Source of the DNA: Steroidobacteraceae bacterium
GTDB lineage: Bacteria > Pseudomonadota > Gammaproteobacteria > Steroidobacterales > Steroidobacteraceae
Direction of reading: 5' to 3'
Assembly (NCBI GenBank): GCA_035604655.1
Contig: DATNHZ010000051.1
Location: 1 to 43,763 of the forward strand
Length of the DNA stretch: 43,763 nucleotides
This document shows positions 1 to 41,656 of the stretch, one piece after another. Both the position numbers and the translations under genes were made by a program. Position 1 is the stretch's first letter. The number at the start of each line of letters is the position of its first letter. A model generated the notes under the pieces. The model had not been told where the DNA came from. It made no database searches and was given only the letters and a program-made list of their open reading frames with translations.

Positions 1-2659
1 ACAGCGCAATCACCGCGCCACCGAGCGAGAGGGGCAGCGCCGACAGAATCGTCAGCGGCTGGAATACGCGCGCGAACAACAGCACCAGCACCGCAAACAC
101 CATCAGCACGCCGGCCGCGATCGCAAGCGCAAAGTTCTGCATCATCTCCTGCATGAACTCGAAGTTGCCCACCGGCACGATATGCACGCCCTGCGGCAGG
201 TTCTTGATCGCGGGCAGCGCATCGATCTCCTTCTGGGCATCACCGAGCCCGACGCCGGGCCTCAGGTCCGCGTCGACGAACAGGCGCCGGCTCTGATTGT
301 AGCGGCGCACGGCGGCCGGTCCTTCGCCGAAGCTGATGTCGGCGACTGCTTTGAGCGGTACCGATTGGCCGCCCGCTGTCGGAACGGGGAGATTCTCGAT
401 CGTCGCCAGGTCCTGGCGCGAGGACTCCCGCAGGCTCACCCGGATCGGCACCTGGCGATCGGCGGCCGAGAATTTCGCGTCGTTCTGTTCCAGGTCGCCG
501 ATCGTGGCGATCCGGATCGTCTGGCTGATTGCCTGGACCGTGACGCCGAGCTCGGCCGCGAGGTCGAGCCGCGGCCTGATCAGCAGTTCCGGGCGCGCCA
601 GGTCGCCTTTTATTTCCGGGTCGCGCACGTCCTTGAGCGTGCGCAGCTGCGCGACGGCGTTGCGCGCCGCGGCCTCGAGCACTTCCGGATCATCGCCGGT
701 GAAGTAGAGCGTGACGGGTCGGTCGCCGAATCCGGTCTGCGACACGACAGAGACGTGCGCATCCGGGATCTTGCGCAGTTCCGGTGCCAGCCGGTCCTCC
801 CACTGCTGCTGACTGAGCTGGCGCTCCTTGCGGGGCTTGAGCGCGACGAAGACCGAACCCCCGCGGACCGTTCCGTCGTCGCCATCACCGATCGACTCGA
901 GGATGTCGGTGACGTCGGGGTACTTGCGGACGATCGCCGCTACCCGCGCCGACAGCGCCGCCGTGTCCTCGATCCGCACGCCGGGCGGCAGCTCGAGGCT
1001 GATCTGACTGGTGCCGAAGTCGGACGGCGGCATGAAGTCCTTGCGGATCAGCGCGATCCCGACCAGTGACAACGCGAAGAACAGCAGGCCGAGGCCGACA
1101 GTCCGCCACGGGTGCCGCGCGGACAAGCGCAGCAGCTCGAGGTAGCGACGCATCACGCGGCCGTCGAGGTGGGCTTTGAACCCGCTGGGCTTAAGCGTGA
1201 ATGCCGCGACGACCGGCGTGATCAGGCGCGCCACCAGCAGCGAGAAGAACACGGCGGCGGCCACTGTCAGGCCGAACTGCTTGAAGTACTGCCCGGTGAA
1301 GCCGCCCATGAAGCTGACCGGCAGGAACACCGCGATGATGGTTGCCGACGTCGCGACCACCGCGAGCCCGATCTCGTCCGCGGCGTCGAGGGCAGCCTGG
1401 TAGGGTTTCTTGCCCATGCGGATGTGCCGCACGATGTTTTCGATCTCGACGATCGCATCGTCAACCAGTACGCCGGCCACCAGTGACAGCGCCAGCAGGC
1501 TGATGCCGTTGAGCGTGAAATCCATCCATGACATGAAGGCGAAGGTCGGGATCGCCGACAGCGGGATCGCGAGCGCCGAGATCGCGGTCGCGCGCCAGTT
1601 CCGCAGGAACAGCCAGACGACGACAACGGCAAGCAGCGAGCCTTCGAGCAGCGCGTCGATGGCGGACCGGAAGCCCTGCCGCGTCGCCTCGACCGTCGTG
1701 AACACCAGCGTCATCGTCACGCCCGGGTTCTCGGCGGTTATCTTCTTGAGCTCCTTCTCGACGCGATCGAGGACGGTCACGTCGGAGACGCCGCGCGCGC
1801 GTTGCACACCGAAGGTGGTGGCTGGCCGGCCGTTCAGGCGCGAGATCGAGCGCACCTCGGCGGCACCGTCGTGGACCTCGGCAATGTCATCGAGACGTGC
1901 GAAGCGGCCGCCAGCGAGCTGGATGCGCGTCGCGCCGAGCTCCTCGGCGGTGCGCGCCCCACCAAGCACGCGGATCGACTGCTCGCCGCCCGCCAGCTGG
2001 GAGCGGCCGCCCGGAGCGTTCATGTTCAGCGAGCGCAGCTGCTGGTTCACCTCGACGGCCGTAATGCCGAGCGCCTGGGTGCGCGAAGGGTCCAGCTCGA
2101 TGCGGATCTCGCGGGTGACTCCGCCGCCGCGGTTGACCTGCGCCACTCCACTGAGGGCCAGCAGGCGCTTGGTGATCGTGTTGTCGACGAACCAGCTCAG
2201 CTGCTCGGGCGACAGCGAGGTGCTGCTGACCGCGTAATAGACCATCGCACCGCCGTCGGTGTCGATGCGGCTGACCGTCGGTTCCTGGATCCCTTCCGGC
2301 AGCTGGGAGCGGACCCTGGCGACGGCATCGCGAACGTCGCTGACCGCGCGGTCGAGTGGCGTGCCGATCTGGAACTCGATGAACACCAGGGCAGTCCCCT
2401 CGGTTGCCCGCGAGGTGACGTTGTGGACGTTGCCGACGCTTGCCACTGCGCCCTCGATCTTCTGCAGCACCTGTGTCTCGATCTCGGTGGGCGCCGCACC
2501 CGGCTGCGATACGGTCACCTGGACTCCCGGGTAGGAGACGTCCGGGTTCAGGTTCACCGGCAGGCGGATGAAGGCCACGATGCCGACGAACACCAGCACC
2601 ATGAACAGCACCAGCGGCGAGACCGGATGCCGTATTGCCCAGGCGGAGATGTTTCTCAC
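1..2659 (-). CDS. RND efflux transporter permease subunit (AcrB/HAE1-like); C-terminal part lies beyond the left window edge
   Basis: Absent from the ORF track because it runs off the edge. My minus-strand translation from GTG at 2659-2657 reads MRNISAWAIRHPVSPLVLFMVLVFVGIVAFIRLPVNLNPDVSYPGVQVTVSQPGAAPTEIETQVLQKIEGAV... and stays open to nt 1. It includes the RND-typical LVAGVLVDDAIVEIENIVRHI segment. The start overlaps the adaptor gene stop (GTGA). Confidence 0.9.
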   Translation of the reverse strand, partial: MRNISAWAIRHPVSPLVLFMVLVFVGIVAFIRLPVNLNPDVSYPGVQVTVSQPGAAPTEIETQVLQKIEGAVASVGNVHNVTSRATEGTALVFIEFQIGTPLDRAVSDVRDAVARVRSQLPEGIQEPTVSRIDTDGGAMVYYAVSSTSLSPEQLSWFVDNTITKRLLALSGVAQVNRGGGVTREIRIELDPSRTQALGITAVEVNQQLRSLNMNAPGGRSQLAGGEQSIRVLGGARTAEELGATRIQLAGGRFARLDDIAEVHDGAAEVRSISRLNGRPATTFGVQRARGVSDVTVLDRVEKELKKITAENPGVTMTLVFTTVEATRQGFRSAIDALLEGSLLAVVVVWLFLRNWRATAISALAIPLSAIPTFAFMSWMDFTLNGISLLALSLVAGVLVDDAIVEIENIVRHIRMGKKPYQAALDAADEIGLAVVATSATIIAVFLPVSFMGGFTGQYFKQFGLTVAAAVFFSLLVARLITPVVAAFTLKPSGFKAHLDGRVMRRYLELLRLSARHPWRTVGLGLLFFALSLVGIALIRKDFMPPSDFGTSQISLELPPGVRIEDTAALSARVAAIVRKYPDVTDILESIGDGDDGTVRGGSVFVALKPRKERQLSQQQWEDRLAPELRKIPDAHVSVVSQTGFGDRPVTLYFTGDDPEVLEAAARNAVAQLRTLKDVRDPEIKGDLARPELLIRPRLDLAAELGVTVQAISQTIRIATIGDLEQNDAKFSAADRQVPIRVSLRESSRQDLATIENLPVPTAGGQSVPLKAVADISFGEGPAAVRRYNQSRRLFVDADLRPGVGLGDAQKEIDALPAIKNLPQGVHIVPVGNFEFMQEMMQNFALAIAAGVLMVFAVLVLLFARVFQPLTILSALPLSLGGAVIAL

Positions 2660-3900
2660 GGTGCGGCCTTGGTCTCAAGCTGCACGCGTTCGCCTTCGTG
2701 CAGAAACGCCCCGGCCGAGGTGACGATCCGTTCGCTGCCATCGAGGCCGCGGTCGATCACGATCCCCTGCGGCTGCGTCCCGGCGATGTGCACGGGGCGG
2801 CGCACGGCGCGCAAGTCCGGACCTACGATGTAGACGAAGTTGACCGCGCCGTCGGAGAGCACCGCGGTCTGCGGGACCACCGGGTGCAGCTCGGTCCCGA
2901 TCTTGACCTCGCCGCGCGCGAACGCGCCGGGTCTGAGGTCGGGATGGGGCGGCAGCGCCACGCGGACCTCGCCGAGGCGGGTTGCGGGATCGATCACCGC
3001 GCTGATGAGCCGTACCGTGCCCGGGAACGGCGCGGCGATGCCGGTCAGATGCACCTCGGCGGTCTGGCCAATCTTCAGTCGCGGCAAGTCCTGCTCCGCG
3101 ACCTGCGCACGCATCTCGACCTCGCCACCACGTGCGAGCCGGAACAGTGTCGCGCCGCCCGGCATTGCCGTCTGGCCGACTTCGGCAGTGCGCGTCAGCA
3201 CGATGCCGTCGGACGGCGCACGAATCTCGGTGCGACCGAGACGCGCCTCGGCCTCGGCAAGCTGCGCCTCGGCCGCCTTGACGCGGGCCGAGGACGTCGC
3301 AACCTGAGATTGCCTCCGGTCGACCTCTTCCTTCGACAGCGCGCCGACGGACTCGGAGACGGCCGCGGCACGCCGATAATCAGCGGTGGCGAGTGCTGCC
3401 TCGGCACGATACTGCTCGAGGCTCGCCCTGAGACTCGCTACCTGGGCCTCGACCACGGCCGGTTCGAGGCGCGCGAGAGCCTGGCCGCGCTTGACCCGAT
3501 CGCCGCTTTCGACCAGCACCGCCGTGACGCGGCCACCTTCGCCCTCGACGCCGATCGGCATGTCGTAGCGAGCGACGATGCCACCGGTGAAGCTCACGGT
3601 CGCTGTGATCGCCGCCTGGCCCGCCGCCTTGACGGTCACGAGCGGCGACTGTTCGTTCGGATCCAACGCCGCAGCATGGCGCGCGGCATTCATCCGAAGC
3701 GCAATGATGAGCGCGAGAACGATGAGCACGAGGGCCACGGCCCCGACGGCGATGACGTGGGCACGGCGCCACCACGGCGGCTCGAGACTGTCGGCGTCAC
3801 GGGAACTGACTGCCGGCTCGCCACGAAACACGGGCGAGTCGAACTGTGGCGCATCGTGCGATTCCGGGCGCGGCGAGGCTTCGTCGTTCACGGTGGGCAC
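2656..3900 (-). CDS. RND efflux periplasmic adaptor subunit (membrane fusion protein, HlyD/AcrA family)
   Basis: 414-aa ORF with an N-terminal TM anchor (VIAVGAVALVLIVLALIIAL), a lipoyl/coiled-coil region (EAQVASLRASLEQYRAEAA...AQLAEAEARL) and a beta-barrel region (IRAPSDGIVLTR). Placed immediately upstream of, and overlapping, the RND permease. GTG start. Confidence 0.9.
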   Translation of the reverse strand: MPTVNDEASPRPESHDAPQFDSPVFRGEPAVSSRDADSLEPPWWRRAHVIAVGAVALVLIVLALIIALRMNAARHAAALDPNEQSPLVTVKAAGQAAITATVSFTGGIVARYDMPIGVEGEGGRVTAVLVESGDRVKRGQALARLEPAVVEAQVASLRASLEQYRAEAALATADYRRAAAVSESVGALSKEEVDRRQSQVATSSARVKAAEAQLAEAEARLGRTEIRAPSDGIVLTRTAEVGQTAMPGGATLFRLARGGEVEMRAQVAEQDLPRLKIGQTAEVHLTGIAAPFPGTVRLISAVIDPATRLGEVRVALPPHPDLRPGAFARGEVKIGTELHPVVPQTAVLSDGAVNFVYIVGPDLRAVRRPVHIAGTQPQGIVIDRGLDGSERIVTSAGAFLHEGERVQLETKAAP

Positions 3901-4037
3901 TTGTCTTGGCAGGCCTGGGATGCGCGAGTTTACGCGCTCAATTGTGCTAGTCGCGGCCGCACTCGACGAGCTGGTAGTCGGATGCGATGGGCCGTTGCGT
4001 GGTCGCTACGTCGCGCGAGTTCCGGGGTGCTGCGGAC

Positions 4038-4076
4038 AAAAAAAGGCGCCGGGAGCGGGGGAAGCTCGACGGCGCC
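4038..4076 (-). terminator. Rho-independent terminator (minus strand)
   Basis: Minus-strand RNA GGCGCCG-uc-GAGC-uuccccc-GCUC-c-CGGCGCC followed by U7 (plus-strand A run 4038-4044). The stem has 11 GC-rich base pairs. It is unidirectional, since the plus-strand version has no comparable T run. Confidence 0.75.
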
Positions 4077-4113
4077 GAGAGTTTCAAGCCACAGGGGGAG
4101 TTGAGACTTGCAC
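4038..4113 (-). ncRNA. Candidate sigma-54-dependent small RNA, or terminated leader of the RND operon (~75 nt)
   Basis: Bounded by the consensus -24/-12 promoter (4124-4139) and the intrinsic terminator (4038-4076). Predicted RNA: GUGCAAGUCUCAACUCCCCCUGUGGCUUGAAACUCUC + terminator, with a C-rich CUCCCCCU stretch. No credible ORF; the only one is a 9-codon GTG ORF. The 5' end is inferred from promoter geometry. Confidence 0.4.
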
Positions 4114-4123
4114 TGTAATCCAA

Positions 4124-4139
4124 GCAAGTCCCGTGCCAT
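4124..4139 (-). promoter_or_regulatory. Sigma-54 (RpoN) -24/-12 promoter
   Basis: Minus strand reads aTGGCACGggacTTGCTt, matching TGGCACG-N4-TTGCW at every specified position. It lies in an intergenic region 224 bp upstream of the adaptor gene start. Confidence 0.65.
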
Positions 4140-4203
4140 GTCCTGAACATCAATTAGATCAACAACTTACAGTGCGAACCGAGCGGCTGACGCCCACCAT
4201 GAG

Positions 4204-4231
4204 GTGACGTTCGGCGTCACATTCTGACGTC
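4204..4231. promoter_or_regulatory. Candidate enhancer (bEBP) site: perfect palindrome GTGACG-N5-CGTCAC plus adjacent GACGTC
   Basis: GTGACG (4204-4209), ttcgg, CGTCAC (4215-4220), then the palindrome GACGTC (4226-4231). The centre sits about 100 bp upstream of the predicted sigma-54 start site. An AT-rich stretch with an IHF-like gATCAAcaacTTA (4151-4170, plus-strand reading) lies between the two. Confidence 0.4.
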
Positions 4232-4259: not shown

Positions 4260-5150
4260 TCAGGAGCGGGCGGGCTTCACTGGTGGGACGACCATGCACG
4301 GGTCATGAGCCGTGCCGAACGCCCGGCACAGCGCCTGGGCTGATTCCCGGCTGAAACCGCCCAGTTGCAGCCGGTACACCTGGTGGCCGTCGGCTGTCCG
4401 GGCTGCCGCAATCAGCGGATGGCGCGTGGCGAGATCCGGGTATTTGCGCACGAGGTGCTGCCACGCCGCCGTCGCTGCATGGCTGCCTCGGGCGAAGGCC
4501 CCGAGCTGCACGCGAAAACCATGCGTGGAGTCCGGACGATCCGCCGCAGTCACTGCGCCCGCCGCGCCGGCCGGCGGAGTCACGGCAGCCGGTGCAGTCG
4601 CCCGGTCGGACGCGCCGGAGGTCGCGGCTGCACCCGGGGCAGGCGATGTCGCACGCGCGATGGCGCCCTTCGCGGTGCCGGCGGCCGCAGCGGGGCCGGC
4701 AGATCCAACCGTGGGCGAGGCGCCGCCCGGCGGTGCCTGGCCCGCCGCTTCGGTCGTCGGGGTCGCGGCCAGTCTGAGGTTTGAAATTGCGGCAAGCGCA
4801 TCGTGCGCGTGCTGACCGGCCGGGTAGCCCCTGAGGTACTGCTGGTAGGCGTCCGGCGTATCGGCAGCGTGTGCCCGCTGCCATTCACGCTCCTCGAGGA
4901 GCGTTGCGAGATGCTCGCGGGCCTCGCGCGCGTGCGCGCCGTCGGGATGCAGCCGCAGGTAGTCGTCGAAGGCGACGACGGTGTTGGCGCGCTCCGCGGT
5001 CTGGTAGTCACGATCGGCGCCGCAGCCCGCCACCAGCAGCAGGACCAGGCACGCGCAACGACTGATTCCGGCGCCGCGGTGACGCCGCGCAACCGCGGCG
5101 CCGGTCGACGACGTCGATACCACGCGTGCGCCAAGGCTGAGTCGCAGCAT
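4260..5150 (-). CDS. SPOR domain-containing lipoprotein
   Basis: Internal ATG at 5150 of the 450-aa ORF gives MLRLSLGARV...CLVLLLVAGCGAD (lipobox LVAGC). There is a Pro/Ala-rich linker and a C-terminal SPOR-like GFRVQLGAFARGSHAATAAWQHL...YRLQLGGFSRESAQALC. The upstream 154 codons are Arg/Pro-rich and overlap the divergent gene region. Confidence 0.75.
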   Translation of the reverse strand: MLRLSLGARVVSTSSTGAAVARRHRGAGISRCACLVLLLVAGCGADRDYQTAERANTVVAFDDYLRLHPDGAHAREAREHLATLLEEREWQRAHAADTPDAYQQYLRGYPAGQHAHDALAAISNLRLAATPTTEAAGQAPPGGASPTVGSAGPAAAAGTAKGAIARATSPAPGAAATSGASDRATAPAAVTPPAGAAGAVTAADRPDSTHGFRVQLGAFARGSHAATAAWQHLVRKYPDLATRHPLIAAARTADGHQVYRLQLGGFSRESAQALCRAFGTAHDPCMVVPPVKPARS

Positions 5151-5256
5151 CGTGACCCCGTCGGTACCACTGGGCGCAGGCATGGACATTAGTATAGTAG
5201 CGCGGTGCCAGTCACGGCCCGGACGCGCACCGGCGCGCCGCGCCACAGGAGACCCC

Positions 5257-5673
5257 GTGTCCGATGCTGCTGCCGGCCATCCACGCCGCCGGTTCTTTGA
5301 TCGACTACCGGGGACGCCGACGCTGATCGGCGCCGACAGCCGTTTCGAGGGCCAGCTCAGGGTCAGCGGGCCGCTGTCGCTCGGCGGCACGATCATCGGC
5401 GATGGCGTCGTCGCCGGGGCGCTGTCAATCGCGGCCGGCGGCCACTGGCAGGGCATGATCGAGGCGCAATCGGCGGTGATCGCCGGCCGTATCACCGGCG
5501 ATCTGAGGATCGAGGCCAAGCTCGAGATCGGCAAGACGGCCGTCATCCACGGCCGGGTGTGGGGCCAGGTCATTGCGATTGCTGACGGGGCGATCGTCGA
5601 CGGCGAGATCACCGTGACCGGCGATCAACCGGTCACCCGATTCAAGGAGAAGCGCGGGCCGGCGGATCCCTAG
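5257..5673 (+). CDS. Bactofilin family polymer-forming cytoskeletal protein
   Basis: Beta-helix repeats typical of bactofilin/DUF583 (GDGVVAGALSIAAGGHWQGMIEAQSAVIAGRITGDLRIEAKLEIGKTAVIHGRVWGQVIAIADGAIVDGEITV). GTG at 5257 is preceded by AGGAG. Alternative starts at 5152 and 5182 cannot be excluded. Confidence 0.75.
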   Translation: MSDAAAGHPRRRFFDRLPGTPTLIGADSRFEGQLRVSGPLSLGGTIIGDGVVAGALSIAAGGHWQGMIEAQSAVIAGRITGDLRIEAKLEIGKTAVIHGRVWGQVIAIADGAIVDGEITVTGDQPVTRFKEKRGPADP

Positions 5674-12517: not shown

Positions 12518-13186
12518 CTAGGCGCCGGTGAGCGAACCCGCCGGGCGCGGCACCCGCAGCCGCAGTCCGTCGGCCGCGAGCAGCTGCAATCCAAGGAGGC
12601 GGACCGCCACCGCGCGATCGGCAGCGGCCGGCACCGCAGTGTCAATCAGCCGCGGCCAGAATGTCGCATGCCGTCCCCAGCGCGCCTGCGCCTGCGGCAG
12701 CGCCGCCATCGCCACGTGGTCGATCGCCGACAGCGGGATGCCGCGCCACGCACACTTCACCTCAGCCGTCATGCCGAGCACCAGGGCCGCCGCCAGATCC
12801 TTGCTCTGCGCCAGATGCCAGGCCAGAAACACCGCCGTGCGCGCGAAACAGGCATCGTCCGTCGCAGTGCCAGGCGTGCGCCGGGCAGCGTCGCCCGCGA
12901 GCCGGCGCCAGAATGCTGCGTCCTTGAAGCGCAGATCGAAGAGCGTGTACGGACACAGTGCCACGGCAATGCGCGCCGGCGCAGCCAGGGCTTCGATCCG
13001 GGCCACCGTCTCGGGCGCGAGGCCGAATGCGCCGCGTGCAGGCTCCGCCGCGTGGCGGTCTGCGACCAGATCAAGGAACAAGCGGTTGGCCTCGCCGATC
13101 GATGCGAGCGCGCTTTGATCGAGGATGGCGCGGGCCGCGTAGGGACCGTCGGGGGCCTCGCGCACACGGTTCGCTGACTCAACCAT
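12518..13186 (-). CDS. Hypothetical protein with two tandem FlhD-like segments (candidate partner of the divergent FlhC-like regulator)
   Basis: The real gene is the last 222 codons of a 514-aa ORF, starting at ATG 13186 preceded by AGGAGGGGG. Residues ~30-90 (ANRLFLDLVADRHAAEPARGAFGLAPETVARIEALAAPARIAVALCPYTLFDLRF) parallel E. coli FlhD ([57 protein letters not shown], recalled from memory). A second copy of the pattern sits at ~115-185 (VFLAWHLAQSKDLAAALVLGMTAEVKCAWRGIPLSAIDHVA...ARW...FWPRL). Confidence 0.6.
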   Translation of the reverse strand: MVESANRVREAPDGPYAARAILDQSALASIGEANRLFLDLVADRHAAEPARGAFGLAPETVARIEALAAPARIAVALCPYTLFDLRFKDAAFWRRLAGDAARRTPGTATDDACFARTAVFLAWHLAQSKDLAAALVLGMTAEVKCAWRGIPLSAIDHVAMAALPQAQARWGRHATFWPRLIDTAVPAAADRAVAVRLLGLQLLAADGLRLRVPRPAGSLTGA

Positions 13187-13299
13187 TGCATCCCCCTCCT
13201 GCAGCTCGGGTGTCCGGCCGCGCGCCGCGTGGCGGCGGCCTTTCTTGGTAATGCGCGAAGATATTCTGGCTAGCGCTCTCCCATGGGTGAGAGTACAGT

Positions 13300-13321
13300 T
13301 TTTGGTGCATTGATACCAAAA
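13300..13321. promoter_or_regulatory. Perfect inverted repeat TTTTGGT-N8-ACCAAAA in an AT-rich divergent promoter region
   Basis: TTTTGGT (13300-13306), gcattgat, ACCAAAA (13315-13321). It lies in the only strongly AT-rich stretch between the divergent genes at 13186 and 13364. A second imperfect dyad, CTCTC-ccatgggt-GAGAG, lies just upstream (13276-13293). Confidence 0.4.
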
Positions 13322-13363
13322 TATATTTCGAATGAAACCAATTAAAGACGGGAACTCATAGAC

Positions 13364-14011
13364 ATGCGAATCACAGACGATCGTTACACGCGCGACCGCC
13401 AACGGTTCGATCTCGCATTCAGGATGATCCACCACGAGGCACGGACCTGTACGATCCGCATCTGGACCGGGCTCAGCGACGATCGCATCCGCAAGCTGTA
13501 CCGGACTTACGTCGAGAGTCACGGCTCGGGCGTCAAACGCCACCGCGGCAAGTCGCCGACGCAAACGACCTTCTTCCTTCGCAACCGCGAGACCCGCCGC
13601 CACGCCTCGGCGCTTGGCGGGCTGTTTGCAACGCTCGGCCTGTTGCACGACGCGCCCGACCGCGGACCCGGCGGCTCGCTCGGCGGATTGCGCTGGGGCG
13701 AACTGTTCTGCCTCACCTATGAGACCTACGTGGCCTTCTACCAGCCGCACCGCATCTCGTTCGAGCACGCCTGGCACCTGCTGCGATTGCTGGAACGCGA
13801 GGCAGAGCTGAAGACCGGTACCTGCCCGACATGCGATGGCTTCATGGTCGTCGACGTGCTCAGGACCCCGGGTGCCGTCTGCACCTGGTGCGAGAGCGAG
13901 GCCCGCGCGCCGGCGGCGGCCGGCGCTCGCCGCCCTGCGCGTTTCATCCCGCTGGCCGCGCGCCGCGCCATGTCGCTGCGGAGCAGGGCCCTGGCTGCGG
14001 CGGCCGGGTAG
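13364..14011 (+). CDS. FlhC-like zinc-ribbon transcriptional regulator
   Basis: LSDDRIRKLYRTY...RGKSPTQTTFFLRNRETRRHASALGGLF parallels E. coli FlhC LSRGRLIKLYKEL...[23 protein letters not shown] (from memory). The C-terminal CPTC-x16-CTWC matches the FlhC CxxC...CxxC zinc site. Confidence 0.6.
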   Translation: MRITDDRYTRDRQRFDLAFRMIHHEARTCTIRIWTGLSDDRIRKLYRTYVESHGSGVKRHRGKSPTQTTFFLRNRETRRHASALGGLFATLGLLHDAPDRGPGGSLGGLRWGELFCLTYETYVAFYQPHRISFEHAWHLLRLLEREAELKTGTCPTCDGFMVVDVLRTPGAVCTWCESEARAPAAAGARRPARFIPLAARRAMSLRSRALAAAAG

Positions 14012-38057: not shown

Positions 38058-40817
38058 ATGGCCGACGTCCCGCGCCTGTATCTGGTCGACGGCTCCTCGT
38101 ACCTGTATCGCGCGTTTCACGCGTTGCCGCCGTTCAGCAATTCCAAGGGTGAGCCGACGGGCGCGGTGTTCGGCGTACTCAACATGCTGCAGAAGTTCGT
38201 GAAGGACGAACGCCCGACGCACATCGGGATCGTGTTCGACGCGCCGGGACGCACCTTCCGGGACGACCTGTTCGAAGCCTACAAGGCGCACCGGCCGCCG
38301 ATGCCGGACGAGCTGCGCTCGCAGGTCGCGCCGCTCCTCGAGACGGTCGAGGCCCTGGGCCTGCCGCTGCTGCGTGTCCCGGGGGTCGAGGCCGACGATG
38401 TGATCGGCACGCTGGCGCGCCGCGCTGCGGCCGAAGGCATGCAGGTCGTGATCTCGACCGGCGACAAGGACATGGCGCAACTGGTCGACGGCCAGGTCAC
38501 TCTGATCAATACGATGACCGGAACGACGCTCGACCGGGCGGGCGTCAAGGCGCGGTTCGACGTCGACCCCGAGCAGATCGTCGACTACCTGGCGCTCGTC
38601 GGCGATGCCTCGGACAACATCCCGGGCGTGCCGAAGGTCGGGCCCAAGACCGCCGCCAAGTGGCTGAGCAGCTACCGCACGGTCGATGAACTCATCACCC
38701 ACTCAGCCGAGATCGAAGGCAAGGTCGGCGAGAGCCTGCGTGCGAATCTGCCGCAGCTCGAGTTGTCGCGAAAGCTCGCCACGATCCGCTGCGACCTGGC
38801 GCTGCCCGTCGAGCCGGCCGGGCTCGCACCGCGCTCGCCCGACGTCGAGCGGCTCAAGGCGCTGTACCGCAGCTTGGAGTTCAGGAAGCACCTGGAGGCG
38901 CTCGAGGCCGGCACGTCCGGCGAGCAAGCACCCGCCGCGGTGGCTGAGCCGCCGCGTGCAACCGGCGACGGGAAGCCGGACGCGATGCGCGACGCCATCG
39001 CCGCCGCTCCGCGTCACTACGACACCGTCGTCACCGAGCAGCAGCTCGGCAACTGGCTCGAGCGGCTGCGGGCCGCGGAACTGTTTGCATTCGACACCGA
39101 GACCACCGGTCTCGACTACATGACCGCCGAGATCGTCGGGCTGTCCTTCGCGACGGCGCCCGGCGAGGCCGCCTACGTGCCGCTGATGCACGATTATGCG
39201 GGCGCTCCGGAGCAGCTGCCGCGCGAGCACGTGCTGCGGGCGCTGCGGCCGCTGCTCGAGGATCCCACAAGGGCCAAGGTTGGGCATCACGCCAAGTTCG
39301 ATGCGCACATCCTCGAGAACCACGGGATCCGCCTCGCCGGCCTGCGGTTCGACTCAATGCTCGAATCCTACGTGCTCGACAGCGTCGCCACGCGCCACGA
39401 CATGGATTCGGTGGCGGAGCGCTACCTCGGCATCCGCACGATCCACTTCGAGGATGTCGCGGGCAAGGGAGCGAAGCAGCTGACCTTCAACCAGGTACCG
39501 GTCGAGACGGCCGCCGAGTACGCCGCCGAGGACGCCGATGTCACGCTGCGCCTGCACCGCGTCCTGCGCGCGCGGCTCGAACGGGAGCCGCGGCTGCTGC
39601 GGCTTTATGACGAGCTCGAGCAGCCGCTGCAACCTGTATTGCAGCGGATGGAGCGGCGCGGCGTGCTGGTCGACCGCGAGTTCCTGCGCGGGCTCAGCCG
39701 CGAGTTCGCGCAGCGTCTCGGCGAGCTCGAGAAGGCCGCCCACGACGCAGCCGGCGGGCCTTTCAATCTCGAATCCCCGCGGCAGCTGCAGCAGATCCTG
39801 TTCGAGCGGCTGAACATTCCGGTGGTTCGGCGCACGCCGACCGGGCAACCGTCGACCGCCGAGGACGTGCTCGAGGAGCTGGCCGGGAGCCATGCGCTGC
39901 CGAAGCTGATACTCGACTACCGGGTGCTGGCGAAGCTGAAGAGCACCTACACCGACACGTTGCCCGAACAGGTGAGCCCGCGCACCGGCCGCATTCACAC
40001 CTCCTACCATCAGGCTGTCGCCGCGACCGGGCGGCTGTCGTCATCGGATCCGAACCTGCAGAACATTCCGATTCGCACGCAGGAAGGCCGTCGCATCCGT
40101 CAGGCATTCATCGCCCCGCCCGGCCGCGTGCTGCTCGCCGCCGATTACTCGCAGATCGAGCTGCGGATCATGGCGCACCTGTCGGGGGACCCCGGACTGC
40201 TGCGCGCCTTCGCCGAACGGCGCGACGTGCACGAGGCGACGGCGGCCGAGATGTTTGGTCTCGAACCGTCGGCGGTGACGGTCGATCAGCGCCGCGCAGC
40301 GAAGGCGATCAACTTCGGCCTGATGTACGGCATGTCGGCGTTCGGACTCGCCGCGCGGCTCGACATCGACCGCGGCTCCGCGCAGCAGTACATCGAGCGC
40401 TACTTCGAGCGCTATCCGGGCGTGCGTCGCTACATGGATGACACCCGCAGGCTCGCGCGCGAGCAGGGCTATGTCGAGACCGTGGACGGTCGGCGCCTGT
40501 ACCTGCCGGAGATCCGCTCCCGCAACAAGCAGCAGCAGCAGTATGCGGAGCGGGCCGCGATCAATGCTCCGATGCAGGGCACGGCGGCCGACATCATCAA
40601 GCGCGCGATGCTCGCAGTGGATTCCTGGATCGAGAGCGAGCGTGCACCGGCGACACTCGTGATGCAGGTGCACGATGAGCTGGTGCTCGAGGTCGGGGCG
40701 GACGCCGTCGAGGCGGTGCGCCCGCGCATCGTCTCGCTGATGTGTGCCGCGGCGACGCTGCAGGTGCCGCTCGAGGTCGGGGTCGGGGTCGGGGCCAACT
40801 GGGACGAGGCGCACTGA
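38058..40817 (+). CDS. polA: DNA polymerase I
   Basis: 919 aa. 5'-nuclease N-terminus (LYLVDGSSYLYRAFHA), 3'-5' exonuclease (FAFDTETTGLD), polymerase motifs (DYSQIELRI, RRAAKAINFGLMYG, QVHDEL). Confidence 0.98.
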   Translation: MADVPRLYLVDGSSYLYRAFHALPPFSNSKGEPTGAVFGVLNMLQKFVKDERPTHIGIVFDAPGRTFRDDLFEAYKAHRPPMPDELRSQVAPLLETVEALGLPLLRVPGVEADDVIGTLARRAAAEGMQVVISTGDKDMAQLVDGQVTLINTMTGTTLDRAGVKARFDVDPEQIVDYLALVGDASDNIPGVPKVGPKTAAKWLSSYRTVDELITHSAEIEGKVGESLRANLPQLELSRKLATIRCDLALPVEPAGLAPRSPDVERLKALYRSLEFRKHLEALEAGTSGEQAPAAVAEPPRATGDGKPDAMRDAIAAAPRHYDTVVTEQQLGNWLERLRAAELFAFDTETTGLDYMTAEIVGLSFATAPGEAAYVPLMHDYAGAPEQLPREHVLRALRPLLEDPTRAKVGHHAKFDAHILENHGIRLAGLRFDSMLESYVLDSVATRHDMDSVAERYLGIRTIHFEDVAGKGAKQLTFNQVPVETAAEYAAEDADVTLRLHRVLRARLEREPRLLRLYDELEQPLQPVLQRMERRGVLVDREFLRGLSREFAQRLGELEKAAHDAAGGPFNLESPRQLQQILFERLNIPVVRRTPTGQPSTAEDVLEELAGSHALPKLILDYRVLAKLKSTYTDTLPEQVSPRTGRIHTSYHQAVAATGRLSSSDPNLQNIPIRTQEGRRIRQAFIAPPGRVLLAADYSQIELRIMAHLSGDPGLLRAFAERRDVHEATAAEMFGLEPSAVTVDQRRAAKAINFGLMYGMSAFGLAARLDIDRGSAQQYIERYFERYPGVRRYMDDTRRLAREQGYVETVDGRRLYLPEIRSRNKQQQQYAERAAINAPMQGTAADIIKRAMLAVDSWIESERAPATLVMQVHDELVLEVGADAVEAVRPRIVSLMCAAATLQVPLEVGVGVGANWDEAH

Positions 40818-40924: not shown

Positions 40925-41036
40925 GAACGTTCCCGGACGTTCCCCGCTGCCCTCCCTGAGCGGGCCCATCACCCGGTTTATCCCCATGCCGGGTTAGTCT
41001 GGCCCGGCGGCACTCAGTGCCGCCGGGCCTTTTTTA
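40925..41036 (+). ncRNA. Candidate ~110-nt small RNA downstream of polA
   Basis: 5' tandem ACGTTCCC x2 (40927-40934, 40937-40944). Hairpin 1: CCCGCT (40943-48) / AGCGGG (40959-64) with loop GCCCUCCCUG. Hairpin 2: ACCCGG (40971-76) / CCGGGT (40989-94) with loop UUUAUCCCCAUG. A perfect 13-bp terminator follows. The only overlapping ORF (40877..41347) has no coding character. The 5' end is inferred. Confidence 0.4.
41001..41035 (+). terminator. Rho-independent terminator
   Basis: GGCCCGGCGGCAC (41001-41013), tca loop, GTGCCGCCGGGCC (41017-41029), then TTTTTTATTTT. Perfect 13-bp stem. Confidence 0.9.
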
Positions 41037-41656
41037 TTTTGCTGTTCAATTGCTTACGCGACGGCGTCTGTCGGCGGGCCGGCAGGCACAACGAAAGCCC
41101 AATGCGGCGTCCGCGACGCCATGAAACGCTCAAGTACCGCGGACTCGGCAATCACGCCGCTTCGCTTCGGAACTTAAGCGTTCGCCGCCTGCACGGCGTC
41201 GGCCCGGCTCGAATGTCGCTCTGCAGGGCCGGCGACGGGCGGCGCGTCGCCCGCGGTCCACGCGAGCCGGCGCATCTCCAGCGTACGTCTGTGCCGGATC
41301 AGTTCAGTGCCGAGTCATCACCACACGCAAGCCAGCGCCGCGAGTAATCACTACGGATGGGCCGCGCGCCCGCCGCGGCATCGTGGAAAACCACTGTTGC
41401 CGATGCCAGGCAGCAGCGCCTCGCACGCCATCGGCTGATCTGCGCACGCTGCTGATCTCGGCCATGCGCGAGGTCCACGCCGGTTCTGCGCATAAGCGAA
41501 TATGCATTGCGAAAATGCGTAGCCCGTGACGCGCGGCGTGATTTCGGGGGCTGCGGTGGGCGCGTATAAAGTTCGAGCGATCAAAGGTTACAGGGCTTGA
41601 TGCGTTGCGGCCTGGCGAGGCCGGCGCGGCGTCTCGACGCAGAATGGGGAATTACA

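Follow-up and report, generated by a model that had tools for sequence, protein, structure and literature searches.

A conserved sigma-54-type promoter and predicted 75-nt small RNA flanked by SPOR-domain and RND efflux genes in Steroidobacteraceae

Architecture of the SPOR–adaptor intergenic region

The window analysed here is 43.8 kb of DNA from an uncultured soil Steroidobacteraceae bacterium (contig DATNHZ010000051.1). Between a SPOR-domain gene and the HlyD-type adaptor and AcrB-family pump genes of a resistance-nodulation-division (RND) efflux operon (Pfam assignments) lies a compact module, all of whose coordinates are read on the minus strand: an upstream activator site, a site resembling those of integration host factor (IHF), a sigma-54 promoter and a predicted small RNA (sRNA) of 75 nt that ends at an intrinsic terminator. 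The SPOR gene lies upstream of the RNA, and the adaptor and pump genes lie downstream. We regard the module as real and well conserved, and as defining a predicted sigma-54-type sRNA family that has not been described before: neither Rfam 15 nor the literature searched contains it.

The promoter, TGGCACGGGACTTGCT (4123..4138, minus strand), comprises a TGGCACG −24 element, a GGAC spacer and a TTGCT −12 element. It is an exact consensus match, with GG at −24, GC at −12 and the exact spacing of a sigma-54 promoter. The initial annotation had placed this TGGCACG-N4-TTGCW match at 4139-4124; it lies one base away, at 4138..4123, and every other sequence feature listed there was likewise found, with coordinates off by at most one base. 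The pattern occurs once in 43.8 kb (0.04 matches expected from shuffled sequence; any match in 4/100 shuffles), and a scan of the intergenic DNA of 80 loci returned no further sigma-54 promoter.

The upstream activator site (4204..4230, minus strand), recognized by its conservation across loci and presumed to bind a bacterial enhancer-binding protein (bEBP), is built from three half-sites: ACGTCAG (4230-4224)-aat-GTGACG-ccgaa-CGTCAC. A perfect palindrome GTGACG-N5-CGTCAC some 100 bp upstream of the start, accompanied by GACGTC, had been singled out beforehand. Both are present, GACGTC at 4231..4226 and the palindrome (GTGACGCCGAACGTCAC) at 4220..4204 with its centre 100 nt upstream of the predicted +1 (4112); what looks like a palindrome is how the two half-sites further downstream read in this window. 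In the family consensus, CGTCAG-N3-CTGACG-N5-CGTCAG, half-sites sit about one helical turn apart in alternating orientation. The GTC, TGAC and CGTCA of this site are invariant in 19 distinct loci, and in every locus 73–76 bp separate its centre from the −24 GG downstream. These conserved inverted repeats make it a predicted bEBP site within the ~80–150 bp upstream region where such sites are expected. Further copies of the palindrome in the window occur at chance level only. A fourth CGTCAG half-site (4193-4188, minus strand) follows 11 nt downstream of the palindrome and is not conserved in relatives.

Between activator site and promoter, the AT-rich stretch with an IHF-like site that had been described is present at 4139-4176: these 38 nt have a GC content of 39.5%, compared with 69.1% for the window, placing them in the lowest 0.2% of such stretches. 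The IHF-like site within it, TAAGTTGTTGATC (4157..4169, minus strand; 13 nt, YAA-N4-TTGATW, the reverse of WATCAANNNNTTR), has its core TAAGTTGTTGAT at 4169..4158 (ATCAACAACTTA on the plus strand). A motif TAA-N4-(T/C)TG(A/T)(T/A) starts 33 bp upstream of the −24 GG (34 bp in L089) in 20 of 21 loci; the remaining one, L090, has the near-match TAACCATATGAT in its place. By motif match and fixed spacing, this is a candidate DNA-bending site.

Conservation of the module in related loci

The whole module is found between SPOR and adaptor genes in ~30 related loci, reached through three independent anchors. A search of GTDB genomes with the adaptor protein gave relatives in metagenome-assembled genomes (MAGs) labelled Steroidobacteraceae, Gammaproteobacteria or similar higher-rank names, the best at 93% identity, plus one outlying weak match (L080, 27% identity) in Acidobacteriaceae. 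These relatives speak against Burkholderia as the source, a reading prompted by the match of another part of the window to the anti-hemB family of that genus. Of the eight closest loci, which together span 62–93% protein identity, six carry the module (L001, L002, L003, L004, L006 and L008). The second anchor was a 22-nt core of the RNA, a query containing none of the half-sites, sigma-54 elements or IHF-like site. Searched against Joint Genome Institute (JGI) metagenomes, it returned 18 loci, 17 of them with upstream DNA; the half-site block and TGGCA[C/T]G-N4-TTGCT are present in 17/17, as is the IHF-like site or, in L090, its near-match. Anchoring on SPOR, through a protein database and contig look-ups, recovered the module in all eight loci whose downstream DNA was long enough. 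In loci with flanks the arrangement is constant: SPOR, RNA, adaptor, RND pump. Carriers include DATNIE01, JANXZZ01, JANXUT01 and CAVSGY01. The intergenic region has no BLAST match among PLSDB plasmids, and the predicted sRNA family is so far restricted to one Steroidobacteraceae clade.

Conservation within the promoter region is selective. Compared pair by pair, the loci are identical at 0.98 in TGGCACG and 1.00 in TTGCT, but only at 0.57 in the N4 spacer between them, 0.48 in −10..−1 and 0.34 in −43..−27. The −24 element reads TGGCACG in 29 of 30 loci and TGGCATG in the other. Fixed motifs set among free spacers point to protein-binding sites; such islands of invariance in scrambled DNA are the pattern that DNA–protein contacts would leave, and other explanations would be hard to find. 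The sigma-54 promoter architecture proposed in the initial annotation is thus backed by phylogenetic footprinting, with activator site at about −100, IHF-like site, −24/−12 element and short terminated transcript recurring together, and the −24/−12 element and palindrome both kept at fixed spacing in ~30 loci.

The predicted RNA

The RNA is predicted to run from 4112 to 4038 (minus strand) on the basis of its fold, its cross-locus conservation and a covariance model. A 5′ domain with an exposed CUCCCCCU (4100..4093) is joined by a linker to the terminator hairpin (4076..4045), which is followed by U7 (4044..4038). Besides CUCCCCCU, the second C-run that had been pointed out, UUCCCCC, is present at 4063..4057 and always lies in the terminator loop. 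The proposed intrinsic terminator, described as an 11-bp GC stem with U7, takes the form GGCGCCG..GAGC/GCUC..CGGCGCC (7+4 bp), with a hairpin energy of −19.2 kcal/mol. A simple sigma-70/terminator scan reports no terminator here; the stem's internal loop makes the scan miss it. The 78-nt stretch that contains the RNA (4036-4113, minus strand) has a minimum free energy (MFE) of −28.4 kcal/mol (z = −4.2; 0/200 shuffles fold as well), and the MFE structure of the RNA coincides with the centroid and accounts for 47% of the ensemble. In relatives the 5′ domain often stays open in the MFE fold, and CUCCCCCU is exposed either way.

The limits of conservation coincide with those of the predicted transcript. 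The conserved sequence, (U/C)GCAAGUCUCAACUCCCCCUGUGG, starts 12–13 nt after the −12 C and therefore matches where sigma-54 polymerase should start; the conserved stretch sets in at +1/+2, as predicted, and extends as far as the U-run. Mean column identity of the RNA is 91% among adaptor-anchored loci, and the RNA stays >90% identical while SPOR protein identity drops to 34–50% and that of the adaptor to 58–70%. Set against the 34–57% identity of adjacent non-motif DNA, this is conservation beyond the neutral level. A covariance model scores 29 full-length copies at 88–108 bits and a copy cut by a contig end (L096) at 31.9 bits, with one copy per locus; no other part of the sequence searched scores above 23 bits. 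The RNA has no conserved open reading frame (ORF), in agreement with the earlier view that it holds no credible one: a short GUG-initiated frame is not conserved, and the 5′-most bases differ among loci. A short non-coding transcript bracketed by its own promoter and an intrinsic terminator (+1 at 4112, end at 4038) is what the predicted elements of an sRNA gene describe.

Operon-proximal blocks and flanking genes

Directly after the U-run the DNA differs among loci in both sequence and length, and conservation resumes only closer to the operon. Two operon-proximal blocks (3922..3997, minus strand) are present in all sRNA-bearing loci: CAACGGCCCATCGC at 3997..3984 (family form CGTTCGTCGC) and GAGCGCGTAAACTCGCGC at 3939..3922 (family form G-TAnAnT-CGCG), the latter ~45 nt before the adaptor GTG. 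Two loci, L005 and L007, have orthologous adaptors (63–68% identity) with no SPOR neighbour, RNA or sigma-54 promoter, and keep these blocks (CGCGTACAAT in L005; GTTCGTCGC and TACACT in L007). Because the blocks persist without the RNA, we assign them to the operon and regard the RNA module as a separable unit; they may be the efflux operon's own control region, as promoter or operator, rather than part of the sRNA.

The adaptor (membrane-fusion) gene occupies 2656..3900 (minus strand; Pfam HlyD_D23, 3.5e-24), and the AcrB-family pump gene (ACR_tran, 1e-134) covers window positions 1-1900 on the same strand and runs off the window start. The distance from terminator to adaptor GTG, earlier given as 138 nt, is 137 nt to the GTG at 3900 and so holds within one base; the choice of start codon is less secure. 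Translation probably begins at the GTG at 3891 (VNDEA...) rather than at the ORF-finder GTG at 3900, because conservation in the cross-locus alignment begins at CCGTGAACGA.

On the other side, the SPOR-domain ORF (4260..5612, minus strand; Pfam SPOR, 8e-07) has the same orientation as the RNA. Its stop lies at 4260, and besides the RNA hairpin there is no intrinsic terminator between 4260 and 4038; lacking one of its own, the SPOR gene probably shares the RNA's hairpin as the end point of its transcripts. Homologues of the SPOR protein (n=26) are 248–311 aa long and cover only 22–60% of the 450-aa ORF, within about residues 176–450. The true gene is probably only the C-terminal ~270–300 codons, the ORF being over-extended or a fusion. 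The N-terminal 129 residues of the ORF are conserved separately and lie ~3 kb from the SPOR gene in L095.

Further upstream the surroundings change. In the window and its closest relatives, an alpha/beta hydrolase gene and a 327-aa ORF precede SPOR. In more distant carriers (L099-L103) their place is taken by a bactofilin gene on the opposite strand and by two ORFs (~300 and 495 aa) that lack annotation, apart from a weak Proton_antipo_M match in one. The SPOR, sRNA, adaptor and pump core alone is syntenic across carriers.

Searches for targets and related RNAs

In the window, the best match to the CUCCCCCU run in a translation-initiation region is GGAGGGGGA-UGCA-AUG (13205..13186, minus strand; −26.4 kcal/mol, top 0.1%), a Shine-Dalgarno region whose role as an sRNA target would be speculative. 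The site starts a 222-aa ORF that has no Pfam match and precedes an ABC ATPase gene. Between this ORF and another at 13364-14011 (plus strand), which has a partial FlhC-domain match, the divergent intergenic region (13200-13363) is very AT-rich. Sites resembling CAGGGGGAG are not enriched in the window, and the adjacent operon has no complementary site conserved across loci. The strongest duplex in that operon (adaptor codons P-Q-G, ~120 nt before the pump gene) was discarded as a coding coincidence, as it decays at third codon positions elsewhere.

No Rfam 15 family matches the RNA at gathering threshold, riboswitch and leader families included. A permissive search returns sX13 (24.4 bits, E 0.012; threshold 50), CcsR1 (18.3; threshold 65.3), ar14 (13.3; threshold 58.8) and ncS54. 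C-rich loops are common to sX13, CcsR1 and ar14.

Literature searches on Burkholderia or Steroidobacter sigma-54 sRNAs gave nothing relevant. Those on the TGACG/CGTCA activator motif gave only primer noise, and the half-site matched no known bEBP.

Proposed mechanism and alternative explanations

We favour, with a probability of about 0.7, a free-standing gene for a ~75-nt regulatory RNA that is transcribed by sigma-54 RNA polymerase and acts in trans. An enhancer-binding protein encoded elsewhere in the genome would bind the three CGTCAG/CTGACG half-sites centred ~100 bp upstream, IHF would bend the AT-rich DNA at about −57 to −45, and the activator would then open the TGGCACG-N4-TTGCT promoter. 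Transcription would start at ~4112 and stop at the GC-rich hairpin and U7 at 4038. Acting in trans, the RNA would use its invariant C-runs (CUCCCCCU and UUCCCCC) to pair with G-rich, typically Shine-Dalgarno, regions and so repress translation, with AGGGGGAG-like sequences in translation-initiation regions as predicted target sites. This pairing mechanism is modelled on sX13, CcsR and RsaE-type sRNAs.

Several points weigh against this proposal. Expression of the RNA is a prediction, as are its pairing with Shine-Dalgarno sequences and its dependence on RpoN. GAFTGA/Walker-A motif scans and tblastn with approximate bEBP AAA+ and RpoN C-terminal consensuses, covering the window and ~0.8 Mb of related loci, detected neither a bEBP nor an rpoN gene; the lack of a bEBP gene in the window had already been remarked on, and agrees with this result. 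Because no rpoN turned up in the window or loci, the presence of sigma-54 in the lineage is assumed. No convincing sRNA target was found in the window and neighbouring operons. The 5′ hairpin is worth only −7.6 kcal/mol in the window and is weaker in most relatives through a G-U pair. Covariation analysis finds no pair with compensatory change and a single G-C/G-U pair, with 99% of cells paired; covariation is not seen because the RNA is nearly invariant, and since the sequence hardly varies, support for the structure is thermodynamic only.

Two further adverse points concern the adjacent operon, and they bear on a second explanation, in which the sigma-54 promoter also feeds the RND operon: most transcripts would terminate to give the sRNA, while a fraction, either regulated or constitutive, would read through, so that the bEBP signal adjusts efflux. 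Such a dual-function leader would fit the constant position of the RNA, which adjoins the same efflux operon in the same orientation in every flanked locus and was never seen elsewhere. It would also fit the lack of a canonical sigma-70 promoter or −35 element for the operon, none being detected between terminator and adaptor gene in scans of the window and two related loci, and a U-run that is interrupted in many loci (UUCUUUUUU). Set against it are the strength of the terminator, whose hairpin is followed by U7–U9, and the invariant loops, which have no G-rich partner in the 5′ region of the adaptor gene. The initial annotation had left the choice between an RpoN-dependent sRNA and a terminating leader open. 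The free-standing sRNA is favoured because conservation of the RNA spans predicted +1 to U-run, because post-terminator DNA varies in length and sequence, because the sRNA-less orthologous operons of L005 and L007 keep the operon-proximal blocks, TAnAnT included, and because no antiterminator fold competes with the terminator among the predicted structures. On balance, we regard the leader as unlikely.

A third explanation retains the promoter and the RNA but alters what the RNA does: its C-rich sequence would titrate an RNA-binding protein, in the manner of CrcZ (Hfq/Crc) or GlmY (RapZ). Both of these sigma-54-dependent RNAs act by protein sequestration. Moreover, invariance here extends to nearly all positions, paired ones among them, and compensatory changes are absent, a pattern to be expected from protein recognition or several constraints at once more than from structure alone. 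The RNA nevertheless lacks repeats of known protein-binding motifs (GGA for CsrA, CA-rich runs for Hfq/Crc), and its two short C-runs in 75 nt resemble a seed-type sRNA; sequestration thus seems improbable. The weakest alternative, that hairpin and U-run are simply the terminator of the SPOR gene and that no working promoter underlies the sigma-54-like motif, gains from the absence of any other terminator after SPOR but is highly improbable. It leaves unexplained the invariance of TGGCACG and TTGCT at exact spacing around a free N4, the conservation of activator palindromes and an IHF-like site whose distances are fixed, and the unpaired 5′ domain, >90% conserved from the predicted +1 onwards.

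Significance

The predicted RNA extends the short list of sigma-54-transcribed sRNAs into a poorly studied lineage, the mostly uncultured Steroidobacteraceae of soil and peat. Its clean promoter footprint at fixed spacing could guide a search of MAGs for the enhancer-binding protein that recognizes it and for the regulon of that protein. The mechanism envisaged is conventional, joining an enhancer-dependent sRNA promoter to C-rich anti-Shine-Dalgarno seeds, and the value of the family lies in annotation and hypotheses rather than in a new concept.

Comparison with known RNAs and sigma-54-dependent systems

In promoter layout the closest parallels are the sigma-54-dependent sRNAs glmY/glmZ (activated by GlrR), crcZ (CbrB), qrr (LuxO) and nrsZ (NtrC), which share with the present locus a −24/−12 promoter, activator sites at least ~100 bp upstream, IHF between them and a short terminated RNA. 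The glmY/glmZ promoters combine sigma-54 with three GlrR sites and IHF sites (PMC3045617), and crcZ with CbrB has a sigma-54-dependent sRNA promoter architecture (PMC6296734). The half-sites differ, TGTCN10GACA for GlrR as against CGTCAG/CTGACG here, and the RNAs themselves are unrelated in sequence and structure to the one described here. The activator gene is adjacent in glmY-glrR and qrr-luxO, unlike here.

In the RNA itself, the resemblances are to C-rich sRNAs. The alphaproteobacterial CcsR1-4 or cuckoo RNAs (RF02791; RF02344 for ar14) likewise form two hairpins with C-rich, anti-Shine-Dalgarno-like loops. They score far below threshold, however, carry the motif CCUCCUCCC in place of CUCCCCCU and UUCCCCC, form tandem arrays where the present RNA is single-copy, and come from a different phylum-level lineage. 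CcsR RNAs depend on RpoHI/HII, a different sigma factor from the one predicted here. In the Firmicutes, unpaired C-rich motifs of RsaE/RoxS pair with Shine-Dalgarno sequences. These RNAs are unrelated to ours in sequence, lineage and promoter type, so the likeness is one of analogy only; a parallel between sX13 and RsaE-type C-rich motifs has been drawn before (PMC3771888).

The nearest relative in kind is sX13 (RF02232), a 115-nt, abundant-type RNA of Xanthomonadaceae with three hairpins that is 'always located downstream of polA'; experiments have shown that its C-rich loops repress mRNAs in which G-rich motifs lie close to the start codon (PMC3771888). Both are short RNAs of related gammaproteobacterial lineages and display C-runs in hairpin loops, one of these being a C5 run in the loop of the terminator. 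The differences are substantial: sX13 has three stem-loops with CCCC(C) loops in 115 nt, whereas the RNA here has two domains and two C5 runs in 75 nt; sX13 is linked to polA, whereas ours lies between SPOR and adaptor genes with polA 34 kb away; and no sigma-54 promoter or RpoN is mentioned for sX13 in PMC3771888. The polA gene of the window (38058-40817, plus strand) has an RNA of its own. At 40926-41037 (plus strand), ~110–125 nt downstream of polA, a three-hairpin RNA with C-rich loops CCCUCCCUG and AUCCCCAU and a terminator narrowly passes the anti-hemB threshold (49.7 bits, threshold 49.5) and scores 34 bits with the sX13 model, more than the RNA at 4038..4112 does. Score (24.4 versus 50 bits), architecture and synteny rule out the RNA at 4038..4112 as an sX13 orthologue, the place downstream of polA being occupied by a different RNA.

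The polA-linked RNA is probably the sX13 counterpart of this lineage, which would make the sigma-54 RNA a second, differently controlled C-rich sRNA. If the clade indeed carries two C-rich-loop sRNAs, the sigma-54-gated one might serve, under an uncharacterized bEBP that recognizes an unusual set of three alternating half-sites, as a signal-dependent booster of, or competitor for, the G-rich Shine-Dalgarno regulon of the sX13-like RNA, and read-through might couple the same signal to RND efflux, an extension that we hold only tentatively. More broadly, a single genome may contain several copies of sX13-like regulation by C-rich loops, controlled by different sigma factors.

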